Origin: Candidatus Krumholzibacteriota bacterium
Lineage (GTDB): Bacteria > Krumholzibacteriota > Krumholzibacteriia > LZORAL124-64-63
Reading direction: 5' to 3'
Assembly (NCBI GenBank): GCA_022711765.1
Contig: JAKLEB010000002.1
Span: forward strand, 422,368 to 486,367
Length of the DNA stretch: 64,000 nt
Shown here one piece after another: positions 4,164 through 18,794 of the stretch. The stretch's first letter is position 1. Every line of letters begins with the position of its first letter. The notes beneath the pieces are model-generated. The model was given only the letters and a program-made list of their open reading frames with translations, was not told where the DNA came from and did not search any database. The translations under genes were made by a program, and so were the position numbers.

Positions 4164-5423
4164 ATGGACTATTTCGTGATCGAGGGGCCGACCCCGCTTG
4201 ACGGCGACGTCCGCGTGGCGGGCGCCAAGAACGCCGTGCTGCCGCTCATGGCGGCCGCCCTGCTGTGCCGCGGCGAGTCGGTCATCACCAACGTCCCCGA
4301 CCTGCGCGACACGCGGTTCTTTCTGGACCTCCTGCGCGAGCTCGGCGTCGCCGGCGAGCTCGGTGCGGGCACCCTGCGGCTCGAGACCGCGAGCGGCGTC
4401 CGGTCGGTGACCGCGCCCTACGACATCGTCCGCAAGATGCGCGCGAGCATCTACGTGCTCGGTCCCCTGCTCGCCGCGTGCGGCGAGGCGCGCGTGTCCA
4501 AGCCGGGCGGCTGCGCTTGGGGTCCGCGGCCGGTCGACCTGCACGTGGCGGGCCTCGCCGCCCTCGGCGCGGAGATGAGCGAGGAGCACGGCTACATCGT
4601 AGCCCGCGCGCCCGGCGGCCTGCGCGGGGGGCGTTACCGCTTCGAGCCGGTCTCCGTGGGCGCGACCTGCAACGTGCTCATGGCCGCGGCGCTCGCGCGC
4701 GGCGAGACGACGCTCGAGAACTGCGCCTGCGAGCCGGAGGTCGTGCAGCTCGGCGAGGCGCTGGTCGGCGCCGGCGCGCGCGTCGAGGGCCTCGGCACGC
4801 GGACGCTGCACATCCAGGGCGTCGACGAGCTGCAGCCCCTGCGCTGCGCCGTGATCCCGGACCGCATCGAGGCCGGCACGTTCCTCGCCGCGGTCGCCGT
4901 GGCGGGTGGGCGGATCCGCCTGGCCGGCTGCCGGCTGGACCACGTCGCGCCGATTCTCGGCGTGCTGCGCGACCTCGGCTGCGAGATCCGCGCCGAAGGC
5001 GACCTGCTCGTGGCCGAGCGGTCGGGGCCGCTGCGGCCGGTGAAGGTGGAGACCGAGCCGTTCCCGGGCTTCCCGACCGACATGCAGGCCCAGGTCATGG
5101 CCGCGGCCGCGCTCGCCGATGGAGTCAGCTTCATCACCGACACGATCTACCCCGACCGCTTCACGCACGCGGCGGAGCTGGAACGCCTGGGCGCGAACAT
5201 CGAGGTCAAGAACGGCACGGCGACCGTGATCGGCGTCGCGGCCCTGCAGGGGGCGCCGGTGATGGCGACGGACCTGCGGGCGTCGGCGGCGCTGGTGCTC
5301 GCGGGCATCGCGGCGCGCGGGCGGACCGAGGTGCGGCGGGTCTACCACATCGATCGCGGCTACGAGCGGATCGAGGAGCGTTTGGCGGCGCTGGGAGCTC
5401 GGATCGAGAGGGTCGCGGGGTGA
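4164..5423 (+). CDS. murA: UDP-N-acetylglucosamine 1-carboxyvinyltransferase
   Basis: GAKNAVLP, MRASIYVLGPL, PGGCAWGPRPVDLH (catalytic Cys), PGFPTDMQAQ, TDLRASAAL, HIDRGYE. Confidence 0.97.
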   Translation: MDYFVIEGPTPLDGDVRVAGAKNAVLPLMAAALLCRGESVITNVPDLRDTRFFLDLLRELGVAGELGAGTLRLETASGVRSVTAPYDIVRKMRASIYVLGPLLAACGEARVSKPGGCAWGPRPVDLHVAGLAALGAEMSEEHGYIVARAPGGLRGGRYRFEPVSVGATCNVLMAAALARGETTLENCACEPEVVQLGEALVGAGARVEGLGTRTLHIQGVDELQPLRCAVIPDRIEAGTFLAAVAVAGGRIRLAGCRLDHVAPILGVLRDLGCEIRAEGDLLVAERSGPLRPVKVETEPFPGFPTDMQAQVMAAAALADGVSFITDTIYPDRFTHAAELERLGANIEVKNGTATVIGVAALQGAPVMATDLRASAALVLAGIAARGRTEVRRVYHIDRGYERIEERLAALGARIERVAG

Positions 5424-9999: not shown

Positions 10000-11451
10000 C
10001 TACGCGGGCTCCACCCCCGGAGCCACCCCCGGCTCCACGAACAGGCTCTCTTCTCTCAGGCACACGGCGATGCCCGGCGCCGCCTTGCGCGGACGGCGGA
10101 CGTAGCGGCGTTCGGTGTAGACCACCGGGACCAGACCGCTGTGACGCGCCTTGCTGTGCAGGGCCGCCAGGGCCGCGGCTCTCGCCAGCACCGCGCGAGG
10201 CACGGCGTCGGGCCGGCCGCCGGTCCGCAGCACGACGTGGCTGCCGGCCACGCCCTGGGCGTGCAGCCAGAGGTCGCGCGGGTGGCTCGCCCGGTGCGTC
10301 AGCTCGTCGTTCTCCTCGCTGCTGCGGCCGACCCACACCTCCCAACGATCGTCGATGCGGTAGCGACGGAACGGCCGGCTCGGCTCGTCGGGCGCTCGTC
10401 CGCCGGGGCCGTTCGTCTCGCGCAGCAGATCGGCGCCGGCCGCGGCGAACGCCTGGAGGGCGGCGAGGCGCGCCAGGACGACCGCCGGGAGCTCAGCGTC
10501 GGGGGAGCCGGGACGCGGCCCTGCGCGCAGCGGCGCGAGGTCGGCCAGGGCGCCCGCCGCGCTCGCTTGCTCGGCCCGCGCGGCCTCTAGCCGCTCGGCG
10601 ATGACGCTGCGGCCGCGCGCCGCCTTGCGCGCGAGCCGGAACAGCCGCTCGAGGTTGGCGTGCGGCGCCAGCGCCGGGTCGAGCGCGAGCGTGCGCGGGC
10701 GACCGTCGCGCGGGTCGGTCAGCGTGATCATCGACGTGCCGCGCTTCACGGTGGACAGGTGGGCCGCGAGGGTCTCGGCGTCGCGGCGCCTCGCCTCGCC
10801 GTCGTCGGCGCGCGCGAGGTCGCCGGCCAGGTTGGCGACGAGTCGGTCGGCGGCGGCGAGGCGTCGCGCGAGAGCGCGTTCGAGCTGATCGCCGAGCGCG
10901 GTCTCGCGCTGCCTCGCCAGCCGGGCCAGGCCGAGCGCGGTCCAGTCGGCGAGCCCGGCCGGCGCGGGCGAGGCGGGCGCAGCGAGCGGCGCGGCGACGT
11001 CGAGCAGGCAGGGATGCGGCGACGGGTGCAGGGTCCACAGCAGGCGGCCCGAGTCCTCGATGACGACCGCGCCGCCCCGGCTGCCGAAGAGCTGATGTCG
11101 CAGGTAGCGCGGCCCCGCCGCGGTCGCGAACTCGAGATGCACGACCAGGTCGCCGCTCAGCAGCCCGACGTCGGCGAGCCGGGCGTCGCTCAGCAGGTCG
11201 GCGAGCGGATCGCCGCGGCGGGCCGGCAGCGCCTCGCGCAGCGGCCCGGGCAGGGGCCCCGGGCAGGGGAAGACGAGCACCGCGCCCGGCAGCGCGCCGA
11301 GGAAGAGACTGTCGCGAGGGTCGCCCGCGAGCTGCAGGTTCGCCCAGCCCGGGCCGGTCACGGCGCGGTGCAGCGCCCTCCCGGCGGCCCGTTCCCGCCA
11401 GGCCGCCAAGAGAGGGGCCAGCCGATCGCGGTCGCGCCAGGTGGCGGGCAT
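10000..11451 (-). CDS. NFACT (RqcH/FbpA-like) protein with NFACT-R RNA-binding domain
   Basis: LDPALAPHANLERLF coiled-coil loop; C-terminal VWVGRSSEENDELT..DLWLHAQGVAGSHVVL..AALHSKAR..VVYTERRYVRRP. Confidence 0.85.
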   Translation of the reverse strand: MPATWRDRDRLAPLLAAWRERAAGRALHRAVTGPGWANLQLAGDPRDSLFLGALPGAVLVFPCPGPLPGPLREALPARRGDPLADLLSDARLADVGLLSGDLVVHLEFATAAGPRYLRHQLFGSRGGAVVIEDSGRLLWTLHPSPHPCLLDVAAPLAAPASPAPAGLADWTALGLARLARQRETALGDQLERALARRLAAADRLVANLAGDLARADDGEARRRDAETLAAHLSTVKRGTSMITLTDPRDGRPRTLALDPALAPHANLERLFRLARKAARGRSVIAERLEAARAEQASAAGALADLAPLRAGPRPGSPDAELPAVVLARLAALQAFAAAGADLLRETNGPGGRAPDEPSRPFRRYRIDDRWEVWVGRSSEENDELTHRASHPRDLWLHAQGVAGSHVVLRTGGRPDAVPRAVLARAAALAALHSKARHSGLVPVVYTERRYVRRPRKAAPGIAVCLREESLFVEPGVAPGVEPA

Positions 11452-13549: not shown

Positions 13550-14155
13550 ATGATCCTGCTGATCTCGGGGCCCTCGGGCGCCGGCAAGAGCACCGTCTAC
13601 CACGAGCTGTTGCGGCGCGACCCGCGGCTCGGCTTCTCGGTGTCGACGACCACGCGGCCCGCGCGCGCCGGGGAGAAGGACGGCGTCGACTACGACTTCG
13701 TCGACGACGCGGAGTTCGACCGCCTGGTGGCGGCCGGCGCCTTCCTCGAATGGGCTCGCGTCCACGACCGCCGTTACGGCACGCGCCGCGACCAGGTGGC
13801 CGCGCTGGAGGCGGCCGGCAGGATCCCCCTGCTGGACATCGACGTGCAGGGCGGCGTGCAGGTGCTCGACCAGGTCGGCGTCGAGGTGGTGTCGGTCTTC
13901 GTCTGGCCGCCGTCCTGGGCGGCGCTCGAGGCGCGGCTGCGGGAGCGCGGGACCGACAGCGACGCCGTGATCGCGACGCGCCTGAAGAACGCGCGGTGGG
14001 AGATCGGGTACGCCGACCGGTACGCGTACTGGGTCGTGAACGACGAGGTCGAGGCTGCGGTCCGGCGGCTGGAGGCGATCCTGGTGGCGGAAGGGTGCCG
14101 CCGGGAGCGGTGGGGCGCAGCGCCGGTGCAGGCGCCGGCGCGCGAGCTGGAGTGA
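13550..14155 (+). CDS. gmk: Guanylate kinase
   Basis: SGPSGAGKST, SVSTTTRPAR.GEKDGVDYDF, FLEWARVHDRRYGT, LLDIDVQG. Confidence 0.96.
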   Translation: MILLISGPSGAGKSTVYHELLRRDPRLGFSVSTTTRPARAGEKDGVDYDFVDDAEFDRLVAAGAFLEWARVHDRRYGTRRDQVAALEAAGRIPLLDIDVQGGVQVLDQVGVEVVSVFVWPPSWAALEARLRERGTDSDAVIATRLKNARWEIGYADRYAYWVVNDEVEAAVRRLEAILVAEGCRRERWGAAPVQAPARELE

Positions 14156-14225
14156 ACGGCGACGCACGGACCGAGCCCCTGGCGTCCGCGCTTCGCTGTC
14201 AGCGACCACCGGCACGAGCCGTCGG

Positions 14226-15212
14226 TCACCGCGCCGCCGGCACCGCCGCGCGGTCGGGCCGTGGCGTCGCCACCCCGCGCGCGAGATGGCGCGCGAGCGT
14301 GGCGGCGATCGGCAGGCCGGTCGCCATCTCCACGTAGAGGAACTGGCCCGCGGGGTTGATCTCCAGGAACACGTATTCGCCGCCGGGAGTGAGCCGCAGA
14401 TCGATGGCGCCGTACTCGAGGCCGAGCCGGCGCATGAGGGCGAGCAGCCGCGCCGAGACCGCCGGCGGCAATTCGTGCGCCCGGTACTCGATCTGCGAGT
14501 TGAACCGCACGTCCACCTTGTACTCGCCGGTCTGGGAGTGGGCCTCGGCGGCCAGGAGCTCCTCGCCGACGGCCGTGACCCGCAGGTCGACGACGGCCGG
14601 GATGTACTCCTGGAAGATGACAGGCGCGAGGCGGATCGCCTCGGCGTACGCCTCCTCTTCATCGCGCAGGATCCTGGTCTCGCGCCAGGCGTGGAAGTTC
14701 GCGAGGAACTGCTTGTAGACGACCTGGCCCGGGCGGTCGCGCCAAAAGGCGCGGGCCGCCTCCGGGTCGTTGGTCATGAGCGTCTCGGGAATGGCGAGCC
14801 CGACCTCCTTGGCGACCGCCAGCTGCCACGGCTTGTGGGCGGCCGCGGTGTCCGCGAAGATGTCGTTCACCCAGAGCGCGGCGCTGGTCTGCCACATCCC
14901 CTGGAACGCGGTGGCGGCTTCGCTCATCGCGAAGTGGCGCATCGCCGGATCCGACACCGCGGCAGGGATCCCGAATCCCTGGGGCCGGCGCCACCAGAAC
15001 GCCTTCACCTCGTCGAGCCCCACCCGCATCCCGTCGGGGAACGTCAGGGAGAGGTCGCGGGTACCGTTGCGGCCGAACCGCATGCCGAGGCTCATACGCA
15101 GGGGGAATTCGCCGAGGTCGAGGATCCGCACGCGGGTCTCGCCCAGGAGGGCCAGCTCCCGCATGACGGCCTGCGCGTGGATGTCCTCGGGGGCGGAGAT
15201 GATGAGGATCAT
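14226..15212 (-). CDS. RimK-like ATP-grasp peptide ligase, graspetide (MvdC/MvdD-like) macrocyclase
   Basis: FWWRRP, WVND...AAHKPWQL..AKEVGLAIPETLMTNDP, VVYKQF, APVIFQEYIP..DLRVTAVG, YGAIDL..TPGGEYVFLEINPAGQFL; directly downstream of a Thr/Lys/Asp/Glu repeat protein. Confidence 0.9.
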   Translation of the reverse strand: MILIISAPEDIHAQAVMRELALLGETRVRILDLGEFPLRMSLGMRFGRNGTRDLSLTFPDGMRVGLDEVKAFWWRRPQGFGIPAAVSDPAMRHFAMSEAATAFQGMWQTSAALWVNDIFADTAAAHKPWQLAVAKEVGLAIPETLMTNDPEAARAFWRDRPGQVVYKQFLANFHAWRETRILRDEEEAYAEAIRLAPVIFQEYIPAVVDLRVTAVGEELLAAEAHSQTGEYKVDVRFNSQIEYRAHELPPAVSARLLALMRRLGLEYGAIDLRLTPGGEYVFLEINPAGQFLYVEMATGLPIAATLARHLARGVATPRPDRAAVPAAR

Positions 15213-15264
15213 GACGGCCTTTCCGGTGAAGCGGGGGGCGCCTCCGCCGAGGCGCCCCGCTCGA

Positions 15265-16152
15265 TCAGAACATCATGCCGGGGAGGTTCCACTGAGGCGG
15301 TTGATAGCCGCCCCCGGGCTGCTCGACGAGCGTGCCGCCGCCGACCTCGACCCAGGTGATCGGGTCCTGGATCGGGTCCTTGGTGAGTTCCTTGATGGTG
15401 GGCTGCTGGTCGAAGTAAGGGAACGTGCGGATGTCGACCAGCGGTGTCGTGTGCGGCTGGTCGAAGAAGTGGACCGTCTGCGGCTGATCCAGCGTCGGGA
15501 TCGTGGCGACCATGTCGAGCGCCACGGCTGTCGCGGCCTGGGCCTGGGCCTGCGCCTGGAACTGCGGCAGGCCGGCGGCCGCCGCTTGCCGCGCGATCAC
15601 CTCCGGCGGCGCGTGATGCGGCGTGGCCATCACGAACGGGATCGTGCCAAACTGACCCGGATCGATGGGATCGCCGAGTTGCTTGCCGGGGCCGATCACC
15701 TCCTGGATCGTGATCGGATCCTGGATCGGGTCCTTCGTCAATTCCTTGACCGTGTCGAAGGGCTGCTCCTTGATCGTGTCCCAGGGCTGTTCCTTGATCG
15801 TGTCGATGATCGGATCCTTGGGCTGTTCCTTGATTGTGTCGATCGGCGCTTCCTTGATGGTGTCGATCGGCCCCTTGGCGATGAGATCGCGAATCCGCGC
15901 CGGATCCAGCTTGAGCTCGAGGATCTTCTGCGTCCCGGTCTCCTGGACGATGCGGTACGACTCGACCGCGGCGACCGGCAGCTCGATGGTCTGGCCGCCG
16001 GTCATCAGGATGAACTGGTCGTTCTTGGACGATCTCATGACGGCGCCGACCATGGTCACCGGGCCCGTGACCTCGCGCGCCTCGGGCGCCTGGCGCAGGT
16101 AGTCGGCGAACGGCTTGTCTCCGCGCCCCGCCGACGGGTTCTTCTCGGGCAT
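15265..16152 (-). CDS. Putative multicore graspetide precursor (295 aa)
   Basis: GAGGAG RBS + ATG 16152; DT[IV]KE x5, KELTKDPIQDPIT x2, PFVMATPHH, TxxxxD x4; 52 bp upstream of the ATP-grasp gene. Confidence 0.8.
   Translation of the reverse strand: MPEKNPSAGRGDKPFADYLRQAPEAREVTGPVTMVGAVMRSSKNDQFILMTGGQTIELPVAAVESYRIVQETGTQKILELKLDPARIRDLIAKGPIDTIKEAPIDTIKEQPKDPIIDTIKEQPWDTIKEQPFDTVKELTKDPIQDPITIQEVIGPGKQLGDPIDPGQFGTIPFVMATPHHAPPEVIARQAAAAGLPQFQAQAQAQAATAVALDMVATIPTLDQPQTVHFFDQPHTTPLVDIRTFPYFDQQPTIKELTKDPIQDPITWVEVGGGTLVEQPGGGYQPPQWNLPGMMF
15742..15870 (-). repeat. Coding tandem repeat, ~24-bp unit (xDTIKEQP) x5
   Basis: Repeated GGCTG[TC]TCCTTGA[TC]xGTGTC on + strand, in frame in the precursor. 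Confidence 0.9.
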
Positions 16153-16383
16153 GGCACACACTCCTCGGGGTAGCTTCCGTGTTGGTCTATGACGCGGCGG
16201 CGCCGCGCCGGACGCGAGCCGAGCCGAAGCTGACGATTCGAGGAGATCCGGTGGGAAGCGCAGCGATCTTCTCGGGTGCGGGAGGTTCCGACGAGGGCCA
16301 TCGAAACGGGCGAGTCCCCACGGCCACCTGAACGCCGATCCGGCTCCTGCACGTGCGTCGAAGATGCTGGCTGAGCCGAAATT

Positions 16384-16412
16384 AGAATATTTCAATCCTA
16401 TTTGCTTGTCAA
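16384..16412 (-). promoter_or_regulatory. Sigma70-type promoter of the precursor/ATP-grasp operon
   Basis: Minus strand TTGACA-17 bp-TATTCT in an AT-rich patch ~230 nt upstream of ATG 16152. Confidence 0.75.
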
Positions 16413-16502
16413 CGGACTCTCGCGACTCCCCGCGGCCGGCGCGGCCTTGGACCGACGACCCGCGCGCACCTCGGGTAGCCGGCGGTACCGTCGTGCCCGC
16501 GG

Positions 16503-18794
16503 TCAGGCCTCGCCGACCCGCTTGCGCAGCTCGTCCAGGTTCAGATCGATGGACGTGCGGGATCGCAACAGGTTCTCGAGGACCTCGTCCGGCGGGCGGC
16601 GGCTCGCCTCGCCCGGCGGCAGATCGCCCAGGCGGCGGTTCAGGCTCTCCCAGACGTCCCGAGGCAGCACGCTCTCGAGATACTCCAGGCTGGTCCCGCG
16701 CAGCACGACGTCGCTGGTGAGCAGGCCCTTGTAGGAGATCTGCAGCGGCTCGCGCGGCAGCACCAGCGAGAGCAGCGTGAAGACGTATTCGAGGCTGCGG
16801 CTGCTGCGCGCGCGAAGCGTCGCGTCGCCGGCGATGGTCGATTCCGCCGGCGGCGGGTCGTCGATGAGCCGCCGGTTCTCCCACAGGCCCTTCTCGACGC
16901 GCGCTTCCCGCAAGACCGCCGCGTAGACGGACCTGCCGTCGACGGCGAGGGACGGCTCGCGCTCGCGCAGGCTCGCGAGCGCGGCGGCCGCCCGGAAGCG
17001 GACCTCGAAACGCTGGTCGTCCAGAGCCGCCGTCAATCCGGCGCACGCGCGCGCCGTGGCACAGGTGGCGAGGATCCGGGGGATGCGCCGGCGGACGGCG
17101 AAATCCTCGGCGGGGTCGATCAGCCGGTCGATCAGCTGGCCGGTGATCGCCGGCGCCGCTCTCGCGAGCGCTCGCGACGCCCAGGCGGTGACGTCGTCCC
17201 ACGCGAGCAGCGTGGTAACCTGGCCGGCGATGACGGGGCTCACGACGGATAGCTGCCGCAAATGCGCGCGGACGCGGCGCGCGTCGCCCGAGCGCAGCTC
17301 GACCAGGGCCGCGACCTCGGGATCCACGGCCCGCGCGGACCTGTCCGGCGGCGGCGGGTGCAGGGCGGCGGTCTTCCGGTCGGCCTCGTCGACGTTCGCC
17401 GTCGCCGCAAGGACCGTCCGGCGGACGTCGCCCAGCTTGAGGTCGTCGAGGGTCATGGAGAGGTCGAGACCGCTGAACGTCTCCATCAGGCTCGGCATGG
17501 CGTGCGCCTCGCCGGGGTCGAGCTCGAGGACCTTGGCGCGGTTGATCAGGCTCGCCTCGAGCGCGCGGACGTAACCGGGGCGCAGCGCGCGCGTCACGAG
17601 AAACCCGAGGACCGAGATCGCGACCGCGAGCAGCAGGAGCACCTGGCCGGAGGCCGCCGCCGGCAACAGGATGACGGCGCGGACGAGCACGCCGCCGACG
17701 ATGTCGCCGACGCGGTCGGCGCCGACGTCGATGATCGTCCGGGTGGCGCGGCGATCGCCCGGAACGACCGGCGTGAAGAGGAGCTCGTAGCTGGACCGAT
17801 GCAGCGATCCCTGGACCACGGCCTCGAGGCCGCGCAGGAAGCCCAGGCTGGCGAGGCTCACGAAGGGCGCGACGATCAGCCCGCCCACCGACAGCAGGGC
17901 CGGCCGGACCGCCATGCCCGGCGCGATCCCGATCCGTTCGATGAGGCGGCGCGTGACGCCGGCCTGCACGGCGAGCGTGACGAGCGACACGACCGTGTAG
18001 AAGATCGCGAAGAACCGCACGAGCTCGGCGCTGGTCGCGTAGGTCTGCGTCGCCCGGGCCTTGAACAGGAAGTCCACGAGCGTCGCCGCCGCGTTGCCGA
18101 GCAGGACGACCAGGGCCAGGTTGCGCAGGTAGGGGACCCGGCGCAGCACCTGGAAGCCGGACTCGCTCGCCGGGGGCCGGTCGGCGCGGGCCGCCGGCCG
18201 GTCCGACCGCGGCCTGGCGGTCGCGTGATGCGAGGGCAGTTGCCGCAGGAGGGCCGCGCAGACCAGGTGGAAGCCGGCGATGATGGGCAGCACCCAGAGG
18301 ATGCCGAGCGACGCGCTGACCCGGTCGGCGATCATGCCGCCGAACAGTCCGCCCGCCGTGGCGCCGCCGGCGATCCGGCCGATGTTCCGCTTGGCGGTCC
18401 GCGGGTCGAAGCTCTCGTTGATGGTCGACCAGAATCCCGAGATGAGGATCGAGCTGATGACCGCGACGTGCAGGTAGACGACGACAGCCGCGATCCGGAT
18501 GGTCACCGTCGCCAGGAGCCACTCGCCGAGAAGGAGCAGCCCGCTCGCGATGAAGAACGGCGGGATGACGCGCGCCGGTCCGTACCGCGCGACCCACCGC
18601 GCCGCGACCAGCACGGCTCCGATGGAGAGCACCGCCGAGATGACCAGGACCAGCGGCAAGGTCGAGATCGGGTAGTTGGACAGGAACAGCGCGTCCCGCA
18701 CGGCCTTGCCGGCGATCTGGGTGGCGATCATGACCGCGGCGCACGCCGACGCCGTGACGACCGGTGGGGCGGCGGCTGACCGGCGCCCGCTCAT
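16503..18794 (-). CDS. TLC/Npt (ATP/ADP translocase-like) transporter fused to HEAT repeats
   Basis: ~12 TM segments with KAVRDALFL, FWSTINESFDPRTAKR, SSYELLFTP, IIDVGADRVGD; C-terminal helical repeats (LDDQRFEVRFRAAAAL); ATG overlaps kinase stop (ATGA). Confidence 0.75.
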   Translation of the reverse strand: MSGRRSAAAPPVVTASACAAVMIATQIAGKAVRDALFLSNYPISTLPLVLVISAVLSIGAVLVAARWVARYGPARVIPPFFIASGLLLLGEWLLATVTIRIAAVVVYLHVAVISSILISGFWSTINESFDPRTAKRNIGRIAGGATAGGLFGGMIADRVSASLGILWVLPIIAGFHLVCAALLRQLPSHHATARPRSDRPAARADRPPASESGFQVLRRVPYLRNLALVVLLGNAAATLVDFLFKARATQTYATSAELVRFFAIFYTVVSLVTLAVQAGVTRRLIERIGIAPGMAVRPALLSVGGLIVAPFVSLASLGFLRGLEAVVQGSLHRSSYELLFTPVVPGDRRATRTIIDVGADRVGDIVGGVLVRAVILLPAAASGQVLLLLAVAISVLGFLVTRALRPGYVRALEASLINRAKVLELDPGEAHAMPSLMETFSGLDLSMTLDDLKLGDVRRTVLAATANVDEADRKTAALHPPPPDRSARAVDPEVAALVELRSGDARRVRAHLRQLSVVSPVIAGQVTTLLAWDDVTAWASRALARAAPAITGQLIDRLIDPAEDFAVRRRIPRILATCATARACAGLTAALDDQRFEVRFRAAAALASLREREPSLAVDGRSVYAAVLREARVEKGLWENRRLIDDPPPAESTIAGDATLRARSSRSLEYVFTLLSLVLPREPLQISYKGLLTSDVVLRGTSLEYLESVLPRDVWESLNRRLGDLPPGEASRRPPDEVLENLLRSRTSIDLNLDELRKRVGEA

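Follow-up and report, generated by a model that had tools for sequence, protein, structure and literature searches.

A probable multi-core graspetide-type substrate with a candidate position-independent docking motif, encoded beside its ATP-grasp ligase in a Krumholzibacteriota genome

Can one recognition motif lying inside a protein direct a single ligase to core units on both sides of it? The question is raised by a two-gene locus within a 64,000-nucleotide (nt) stretch of contig JAKLEB010000002.1 from a Candidatus Krumholzibacteriota bacterium (positions 422,368 to 486,367 of the forward strand; the whole stretch is called the window below). One gene encodes a repeat protein of 295 residues and the other, on the same strand, an ATP-grasp ligase of the graspetide-synthetase family. 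The original prediction, made from the DNA alone, proposed that the repeat protein is a graspetide precursor in which an internal PF-type motif, PFVMATPHH, may serve two different core arrays. Comparison with natural homologues indicates that the protein is very probably a substrate of the adjacent ligase. It also makes it reasonably likely that we are dealing with a multi-core graspetide-type substrate, modified by that ligase, in which PFVMATPHH acts as a position-independent docking motif.

The 295-residue protein as first described is the exact translation of window positions 15265-16152 (minus strand), and the two arrays do flank PFVMATPHH where they had been placed (Table 1). Two observations support the start codon, namely a GAGGAG ribosome-binding site and homologues that start at the same methionine. 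Scans of both the Pfam and NCBIfam libraries assigned the protein to no family, and no signal peptide was obvious in the sequence by eye (no predictor was run). From the N- to the C-terminus the layout is a folded domain of about 90 residues (N-domain), an array of DTIKE/KDPIxD units, PFVMATPHH, a spacer of mainly Ala and Gln, an array of TxxxxD units and a second copy of KELTKDPIQDPIT. The N-terminal region had been described as about 90 non-repetitive residues; a domain of that size is indeed present, but it is not featureless and carries a leader-like KPFADYL helix. Array A contains seven overlapping K-x4-D units and six T-x2-E pairs, and its DT(I/V)KE stretch has a 24-nt tandem period with 85-95% matches at the DNA level (TRF). 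Array B ends in TIKELTKDPIQDPIT, which holds two K-x4-D. The KPFADYL helix, the C-terminal WNLPGMMF, the [K/T]-x4-D spacing common to both arrays and the adjacent ligase gene are features beyond those originally reported.

KELTKDPIQDPIT is present twice, at residues 136-148 and 254-266 (window 15709-15747 and 15355-15400, minus strand). The two copies encode the same protein sequence with several synonymous DNA differences, which suggests that the peptide is kept by selection and is not the result of recent duplication.

The ligase contains the MvdD pre-ATP-grasp domain (PF21068, 8e-10, 39.3 bits, over the cutoff of 27) and matches the NCBIfam models TIGR04187 (1e-72), TIGR04184 and TIGR04185 (both about 1e-50). 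Its scores fall under the curated cutoffs of all three (GRASP_SAV_5884, TIGR04187, 244.8 versus 350; MvdD, TIGR04184, 182.9 versus 475; MvdC, TIGR04185, 171.6 versus 425), and the enzyme is related to these families but a member of none. The best match in the PDB was MdnB (5ig8, 1.4e-40), followed by MdnC (5ig9, 1.6e-37), with AMdnB, CdnC (7mgv) and 7drm ATP-grasp chains also found. A tblastn search of the 64-kb window with the ligase matched only itself, and no second copy was found. The ligase belongs to a large clade that numbers over 2000 database clusters at E ≤ 1e-30, nearly all from uncultured bacteria. Both the ligase family and the adjacent, co-oriented substrate with fixed donor-acceptor spacing are those of a graspetide biosynthetic pair.

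A database search with the precursor gave 65 homologues. About 35 of these are full-length, with 24-63% identity, and follow the plan of the window protein: a K[ST]FAxFL motif, the domain of about 90 residues, variable arrays, an invariant PF[VI][LM]ATPHHA block, more arrays and usually a C-terminal NPVWNLPGMMF, which is present in most stand-alone homologues. Alignment of homologues had been proposed as a check on the original prediction, and it separates invariant from variable segments: PF[VI][LM]ATPHH is the only invariant non-repeat element in the family, while the arrays vary in type and copy number. The closest homologue, P0002, has 10 DTxKE units versus 5 in the window protein, and the equivalents of Array B are TxxYFD units or long TSVYAD runs.

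The motif is not fixed in position. In homologues P0186 and P0014 it precedes all arrays, directly after the head; in the window protein and most relatives it lies between arrays; and in P0207, P0214 and every fusion to a peptidase (described below) it follows all arrays, near the C-terminus. Since it occurs before, between or after the arrays in natural homologues, it behaves as a position-independent docking motif would, and this variation provides strong comparative support, the strongest obtained, for the idea that an internal motif may serve both sides. An engineered precedent exists in ThfA/ThfB, where a leader stays active when moved to the C-terminus and a trivalent core is modified better with two leaders (PMC13003496).

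The same arrangement could be read as one follower motif per module, with PFVMATPHH serving module 1 and WNLPGMMF serving module 2, so that PFVMATPHH would not act on both sides. Both modules close with T(V/I)KELTKDPIQDPIT, a Gly/Pro-rich linker of about 21-23 residues and then a hydrophobic motif; WNLPGMMF follows the second KDPIQDPIT at about the distance of PFVMATPHH from the first; P0004 has a third such module, ending in PMMAF; and most homologues with a C-terminal array retain WNLPGMMF. However, PFV is found on either side of the arrays, which lie only after it in P0186 and P0014 and only before it in P0207 and P0214, and the proteins of loci L006-L008, P0191 and P0198 have a downstream array yet lack WNLPGMMF. 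We regard separate follower motifs as a rather improbable explanation.

The remaining matches of the homologue search are astacin metallopeptidases. Their catalytic domain is followed by TxKExxKDPxxD arrays, then by a linker rich in Pro and Gly, a PFV[LM]A motif and a helix resembling a coiled coil; this helix corresponds to the Ala/Gln spacer region of the window protein. At two astacin loci the next gene encodes an MvdD-type ligase, 46% and 40% identical to the window ligase, and is followed by a small gene. Scanning species-representative genomes for PFV[LM]ATPHH returned 16 further loci, from Chloroflexota, Acidobacteriota, Nitrosomonas, Actinomycetota, Alphaproteobacteria and Saprospiraceae. 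Together with the two astacin loci this makes 18, found through the PFV motif or the repeats, and in all 18 a ligase homologue of 40-65% identity lies directly downstream on the same strand, its start at -28 to +134 nt. The linkage held when tested in reverse: the gene upstream of ligase homologues P0137 and P0184 belonged to the same family, with PFIMATPHH or PFAIATPHH.

Several kinds of head occur in these proteins. Loci L003-L008 have the small N-domain, L001, L002 and L009 have astacin, the Marivita group L010-L017 has a trypsin-like serine peptidase (PF13365/PF00089), and L018 has another chymotrypsin-fold peptidase. Two of these loci come from cultured strains, L002 from Robertkochia solimangrovi and L013 from Marivita cryptomonadis CL-SK44. 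The PFV motif is the sole non-repeat element common to the stand-alone family and the peptidase fusions, whose ligases are 40-50% identical. Given the linkage in all 18 loci and the reverse test, PF-V-[LM]-A(-TPHH) is the one non-repeat element that travels with the ligase clade, and the head is interchangeable. The tail of arrays, PFV motif and helix can be read as a portable module, fused in other bacteria behind astacin or trypsin-like peptidases. It is tempting to speculate that the peptidase head may release cyclised units from its own tail, or that a cross-linked tail may act as a protease-resistant or autoinhibitory appendage.

The two arrays of the window protein had been thought to give two ring topologies, one for the Lys-containing and one for the Thr units. 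In every unit type the nucleophile stands five residues before an Asp (KEAPID, KEQPKD, KDPIID, KEQPWD, KEQPFD and KELTKD), and the same nucleophile-x4-Asp spacing is seen in KDPIQD, TIPTLD, TVHFFD, TTPLVD and TFPYFD. The window protein contains 5 DTxKE against 0.01 expected and 14 [KT]x4D against 3.09 ± 1.57 expected, a number reached in 0 of 5000 shuffles; as repeat units are not independent events, these enrichments describe the pattern and not a probability. When spacings of 0 to 8 were compared separately for each architecture, [K/T]x4D was the most enriched in every one, with z = 23.5 and 30.2 for the upstream and downstream arrays of the stand-alone family, 35.2 for the astacin tails and 12.1 for the trypsin-like tails, which consist of otherwise unrelated PTNILxDR units. 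The second enriched pair in Lys-type arrays was T-x2-E (such as TIKE and TLVE; z = 22-38); judged by eye, this pair dominates in L018, and the trypsin-like tails lack it. In the window protein [KT]x3D, the KxxxD spacing of corallotide, was not enriched (4 observed, 3.1 expected), and the microviridin core motif TxKxPSDx(D/E)(D/E) was not found in the translation.

Because both arrays have the same [K/T]-x4-D spacing, one ring size with two chemistries is the simpler reading, and two topologies are not required. The simplest model would be one ring geometry, i to i+5, closed as a lactam or a lactone, possibly with T(i)-E(i+3) rings in addition; we infer this connectivity from the spacing. Likewise, the variable aromatic positions, taken originally for a built-in library, are just the ordinary variability of non-ring positions in multi-core precursors. 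Rings of related kinds are known: the TxxxxD lactone in chitinoviridin/chryseoviridin-type peptides and tandem (KxxE)n lactams in myxomiditides (PMC12848669), and KxxxD lactam repeats in corallotide, whose His-tagged CorA precursor is ~22 kDa (PMC13097080).

It is very improbable that the repeat protein is instead a structural, scaffold or partner protein (with beta-helix or linker arrays, for example) and that the ligase substrate is encoded elsewhere. Makarova et al. found no precursors for the peptidase-linked branch of these ligases and suggested substrates encoded elsewhere (PMC8939145), RODEO selects a YscW-like protein in graspetide group 30 (PMC13097080), and the TSVYAD repeats of homologue P0025 weakly match the beta-helix repeat model of T4 gp5. 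Against this, gene order and spacing hold strictly at all 18 loci, unrelated repeat sequences all retain the nucleophile-x4-Asp spacing, and the arrays are predicted to be disordered. Moreover, a YscW-like gene occurs only in astacin loci and was found neither in the trypsin-like and N-domain loci examined nor in the window (tblastn with three YscW-like queries).

AlphaFold2 (27-row alignment) predicted a confident head, residues 11-92, with a predicted local distance difference test (pLDDT) score of 80-95, in which five strands lie between two helices (15-21 and 84-92). The protein beyond residue 96, PFVMATPHH included, was predicted to be disordered. The ligase might be recruited by the N-terminal helix KPFADYL, as the counterpart of PFFARFL in microviridins, with PFVMATPHH left for processing, metal binding or structure. 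KPFADYL lies within the first 30 residues, its P/S-F-x-x-aromatic-L pattern is close to the 'Phhx(1,2)h' leader signature (PMC8939145), its F15 is invariant or nearly so in the homologues, and it is predicted to be helical (pLDDT ~80). On the other hand, K[ST]FAxFL is absent from the astacin and trypsin-like fusions, which keep the PFV motif and whose ligases are 40-50% identical to the window ligase; the predicted helix belongs to the folded domain, not to a free leader; and the N-terminal motif was likewise undocked in the complex model described below. Recruitment through the N-terminal helix is, in our judgement, unlikely.

Several points nevertheless weigh against docking at PFVMATPHH and the ring scheme as set out here. 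The N-terminal K[ST]FAxFL helix is closer than PFVMATPHH to the canonical PFFARFL leader, and the His-His pair is lost in most astacin fusions (PFVLATPSR, PFVLAGGSR), only PF-V-[LM]-A being universal. The [K/T]x4D scheme alone leaves the conserved T and E of DTIKE unexplained. Release of a small peptide is doubtful, since no conserved protease or exporter lies near the pair, and any cross-links on the window protein are predicted from sequence and gene linkage. Finally, AlphaFold2 predicted no docking for P0033, an apparent precursor-ligase fusion: the ligase was folded (pLDDT above 90), and neither PFIMATPHH (~29) nor the N-terminal motif (about 26-34) was ordered. Such modelling had been proposed as a check on the original prediction. 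The model used a 120-row ligase alignment and no alignment for the precursor half, and is for this reason uninformative on docking. The combined precursor and ligase MAFFT alignment was not clean; precursor rows fell on ligase columns with more than five ligases, and with five the C-terminal halves spilled over. The proposal of an internal motif serving both sides is largely supported on comparative grounds, namely invariance, linkage in 18 of 18 loci and variable position; AlphaFold2 gave no docking signal.

For docking at PFVMATPHH we propose the following scheme. The two genes would form a self-contained cassette of a substrate protein and its own ATP-grasp ligase, the substrate combining a folded head, which is a small beta-barrel, with a long disordered tail that carries two modules of short units. 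The ligase would dock on the invariant PFVMATPHH, wherever this lies relative to the cores, then reach the cores on either side and activate Asp (possibly Glu) side chains with ATP. Small side-chain rings would result, lactams from Lys units and lactones from Thr units, with up to about 14 [K/T]x4D rings. The N-terminal KPFADYL helix and the C-terminal WNLPGMMF might contribute as auxiliary docking elements.

In an exhaustive search of 1.84 billion representatives the N-domain turned up in just 42 other clusters. In each of them it is N-terminal, in proteins of 93-466 residues, apart from one match, the 911-residue repeat protein P0212, which was judged spurious. A Foldseek search against the PDB gave no significant match; the best (an SH3 circular permutant) had only E = 0.02, too weak to suggest a function for the domain. 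BLASTP showed no similarity to the YscW-like protein and hhalign none to the published group-41 large precursor; representative sequences of graspetide groups 34 and 35 of Carter et al. ('long precursors with repeats') were unrelated.

In homologue P0025, residues 295-335, made of 8-residue TSVYAD repeats, weakly match the model of the phage T4 gp5 C-terminal beta-helix (PF22178, 5.9e-08). The match arises from the repeats, with no individually significant stretch, and is probably a periodicity artefact; it does raise the question of regular structure in 8-residue arrays. P0033 (507 residues, from a Gemmatimonadota metagenome-assembled genome, MAG) appears to be an in-frame fusion of a truncated precursor, with N-domain, short array and PFIMATPHH, to a complete ligase, and could be a real fusion or the result of a frameshift or assembly artefact. 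At locus L004 (a Chloroflexia MAG; P0012) the precursor has an aberrant C-terminus running 28 nt into the ligase gene, and the ligase match is split into two frames near residue 181; this locus is probably decaying or mis-assembled.

How does the pair compare with characterised graspetide systems? Microviridin and chryseoviridin (MdnA with MdnB/MdnC; CdnA with CdnC) have homologous ligases, the side-chain Thr/Lys to Asp/Glu chemistry expected here, a PFFARFL-like N-terminal helix and, within the class, the TxxxxD lactone ring. Unlike microviridin, the window protein lacks the TxKxPSDx(D/E)(D/E) cage motif, is accompanied by one ligase gene rather than two (ester and amide), and is a precursor of 295 residues with a folded head. 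Although a leader-like KPFADYL helix exists, the clade-wide invariant motif is internal or C-terminal, and the peptidase fusions have no N-terminal one. Corallotide (CorA/CorB, graspetide group 15) also has a large precursor, repeated single small Lys-Asp lactam rings and a TIGR04187-type ligase (PMC13097080), but its spacing is KxxxD (i+4) against [K/T]x4D (i+5), it has neither Thr units nor a PFV motif, and its clusters need a 2-oxoglutarate-Fe(II) oxygenase and a beta-lactamase-like gene, both absent at the window locus.

Myxomiditide resembles the T-x2-E pattern in the tandem i to i+3 rings of its (KxxE)n repeats, made by one ATP-grasp ligase, MyxF (PMC12848669); its i/i+3 nucleophile is Lys, whereas that in the window protein would be Thr. 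Myxomiditide also belongs to the microviridin class, with four ligases and a PFFxRFx leader at its N-terminus. Plesiocin and thuringinin likewise have several repeated cores per precursor and one ligase (PMC8939145), but their leader is N-terminal, their cores are of the hairpin type (TTxxxxEE or TxxTxxT...ExxDxD), and they lack both a folded head domain and an internal motif. The proposed logic has a parallel in the engineered 'leader-to-follower' ThfA (fuscimiditide, ThfB), in which a short recognition sequence works C-terminal to the cores. Those constructs are artificial, and their C-terminal leader is called 'unnatural' by the authors, whereas the arrangement in the window is natural; their RPFG motif is unrelated to PFVMATPHH (PMC13003496).

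The peptidase fusions bear on ligases for which precursors have been missing. Makarova et al. (2022) described an ATP-grasp 'branch 7' whose loci encode peptidases from a number of unrelated families, often together with a homologue of YscW (PMC8939145). Carter et al. (2026) defined graspetide 'group 30', 65 clusters with astacin in 98.5% and YscW in 80%, in which the YscW-like protein was assigned as precursor by the prediction tool and astacin was taken as a neighbouring protease (PMC13097080). The third gene of L001 encodes a YscW protein (PF09619) 47% identical to the published group-30 'precursor', which places L001 in group 30. The arrays and PFVLA motif of the astacin proteins are homologous to those of the window protein. 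In turn the window protein has no peptidase domain, its beta-barrel of about 90 residues standing in place of the peptidase, and it has a second array and WNLPGMMF after the motif; nor is there a YscW-like gene. In the literature the precursor is either missing or the YscW-like protein, never the peptidase tail (PMC8939145, PMC13097080).

YscW-like genes accompany astacin heads only (L001, 10282-10623; L002, 10132-10500; L009, about 4378-4620 on the opposite strand), whereas arrays and the PFV motif are present in all loci examined, and on this account the peptidase tails are to be preferred as candidate substrates over the YscW-like protein. The latter does have a conserved (R)(I/V)PF(S/D) segment; it may be the reason why the precursor-prediction tool scored this protein, and the protein may possibly be a partner or second substrate. 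The broader proposal is that the tail is a portable ligase-cross-linked module with natural position-independent recognition, that in branch 7/group 30 the astacin or trypsin-like peptidase would itself supply the substrate, as its C-terminal tail, and that the window holds a peptidase-free, two-module version; for this proposal as a whole we consider the case evenly balanced. A literature search on astacin or YscW with graspetide or ATP-grasp found only Makarova et al. (2022) and, in the library searched, nothing linking peptidase tails to a substrate role; one on graspetide with Gemmatimonad found nothing.

The cassette lies among housekeeping genes. It is flanked by gmk and yicC on the other strand and, upstream, by genes for an MFS/TLC-like HEAT-repeat protein and a Ser/Thr kinase (Table 1). 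None of these flanking genes recurs at the related loci examined in other organisms, and the conserved unit is therefore the two-gene cassette. No astacin or other peptidase homologue was found in the window, and no protease or exporter was conserved beside the precursor-ligase pair at the related loci examined. With no dedicated exporter or protease, the product may stay a cross-linked protein, as in corallotide.

The sigma-70-like promoter candidate, a consensus match only, is the sole site in 14000-16600 (shuffle average 0.2). The stem-loop in the intergenic gap (-35.1 kcal/mol for the containing 71-nt stretch 15205-15275, z = -2.4) might set the precursor-to-enzyme expression ratio. By coordinate arithmetic, the start of the upstream 763-residue protein overlaps the kinase stop by 4 nt. 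A few kilobases away lies a gene for an NFACT-family (RqcH-like) protein that is unrelated to the cassette.

Table 1. Features of the precursor-ligase cassette and its neighbourhood (window coordinates).
Feature	Residues	Position	Strand	Remarks
Precursor/substrate coding sequence, 295 residues		15265..16152	-	Stop codon 15265-15267
Folded N-domain	11-92	15877..16122	-	Helix, five-stranded small beta-barrel, helix (predicted)
Leader-like N-terminal motif KPFADYL	13-19	16096..16116	-	Homologues K[ST]FAxFL
Array A / module 1	97-148	15709..15864	-	Five DT(I/V)KE, KDPIID and KELTKDPIQDPIT
DT(I/V)KE units	97-137	15742-15864	-	Translation and TRF
PFVMATPHH	172-180	15613..15639	-	Proposed ligase-docking motif
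Ala/Gln-rich spacer	181-216	15505..15612	-	Weak predicted helix at 183-192
Array B / module 2	217-266	15355..15504	-	T-x4-D units, then TIKELTKDPIQDPIT
TIPTLD, TVHFFD, TTPLVD, TFPYFD	217-248	15409-15504	-	
C-terminal motif WNLPGMMF	288-295	15268..15291	-	Conserved in homologue alignments
ATP-grasp ligase (graspetide-synthetase family), 328 residues		14226..15212	-	52 nt downstream of precursor
GC-rich stem-loop, no T-tract		15229..15262	-	In the 52-nt precursor-ligase gap
Sigma-70-like promoter candidate TTGACA-17-TATTCT		16384..16412	-	About 230 nt upstream of precursor start
MFS/TLC-like membrane protein, 763 residues		16503-18794	-	C-terminal HEAT repeats
Ser/Thr protein kinase, 551 residues		18791-20446	-	Hydrophobic (likely membrane) N-terminal half
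NFACT-family (RqcH-like) protein		10000-11451	-	

Cross-linking by graspetide-type ATP-grasp ligases is already known; the present comparison suggests that what would be new here is a natural recognition motif away from the N-terminus, together with peptidase tails as candidate substrates. In the cited graspetide literature, recognition sequences are N-terminal leaders and a C-terminal one is only engineered (PMC13003496). Should a natural motif indeed act ahead of the cores, between them or behind them, this engineered logic would already be in use in nature, and PFV[LM]ATPHH would then offer a short tag for engineering. For the peptidase-associated ligases, which two large surveys had left without a convincing precursor, the tails provide a testable answer. 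Confirmation of the [K/T]x4D rings would take the corallotide-type idea of a 'cross-linked protein' further, to a protein of about 30 kDa with lactam/lactone arrays closed in tandem from i to i+5.

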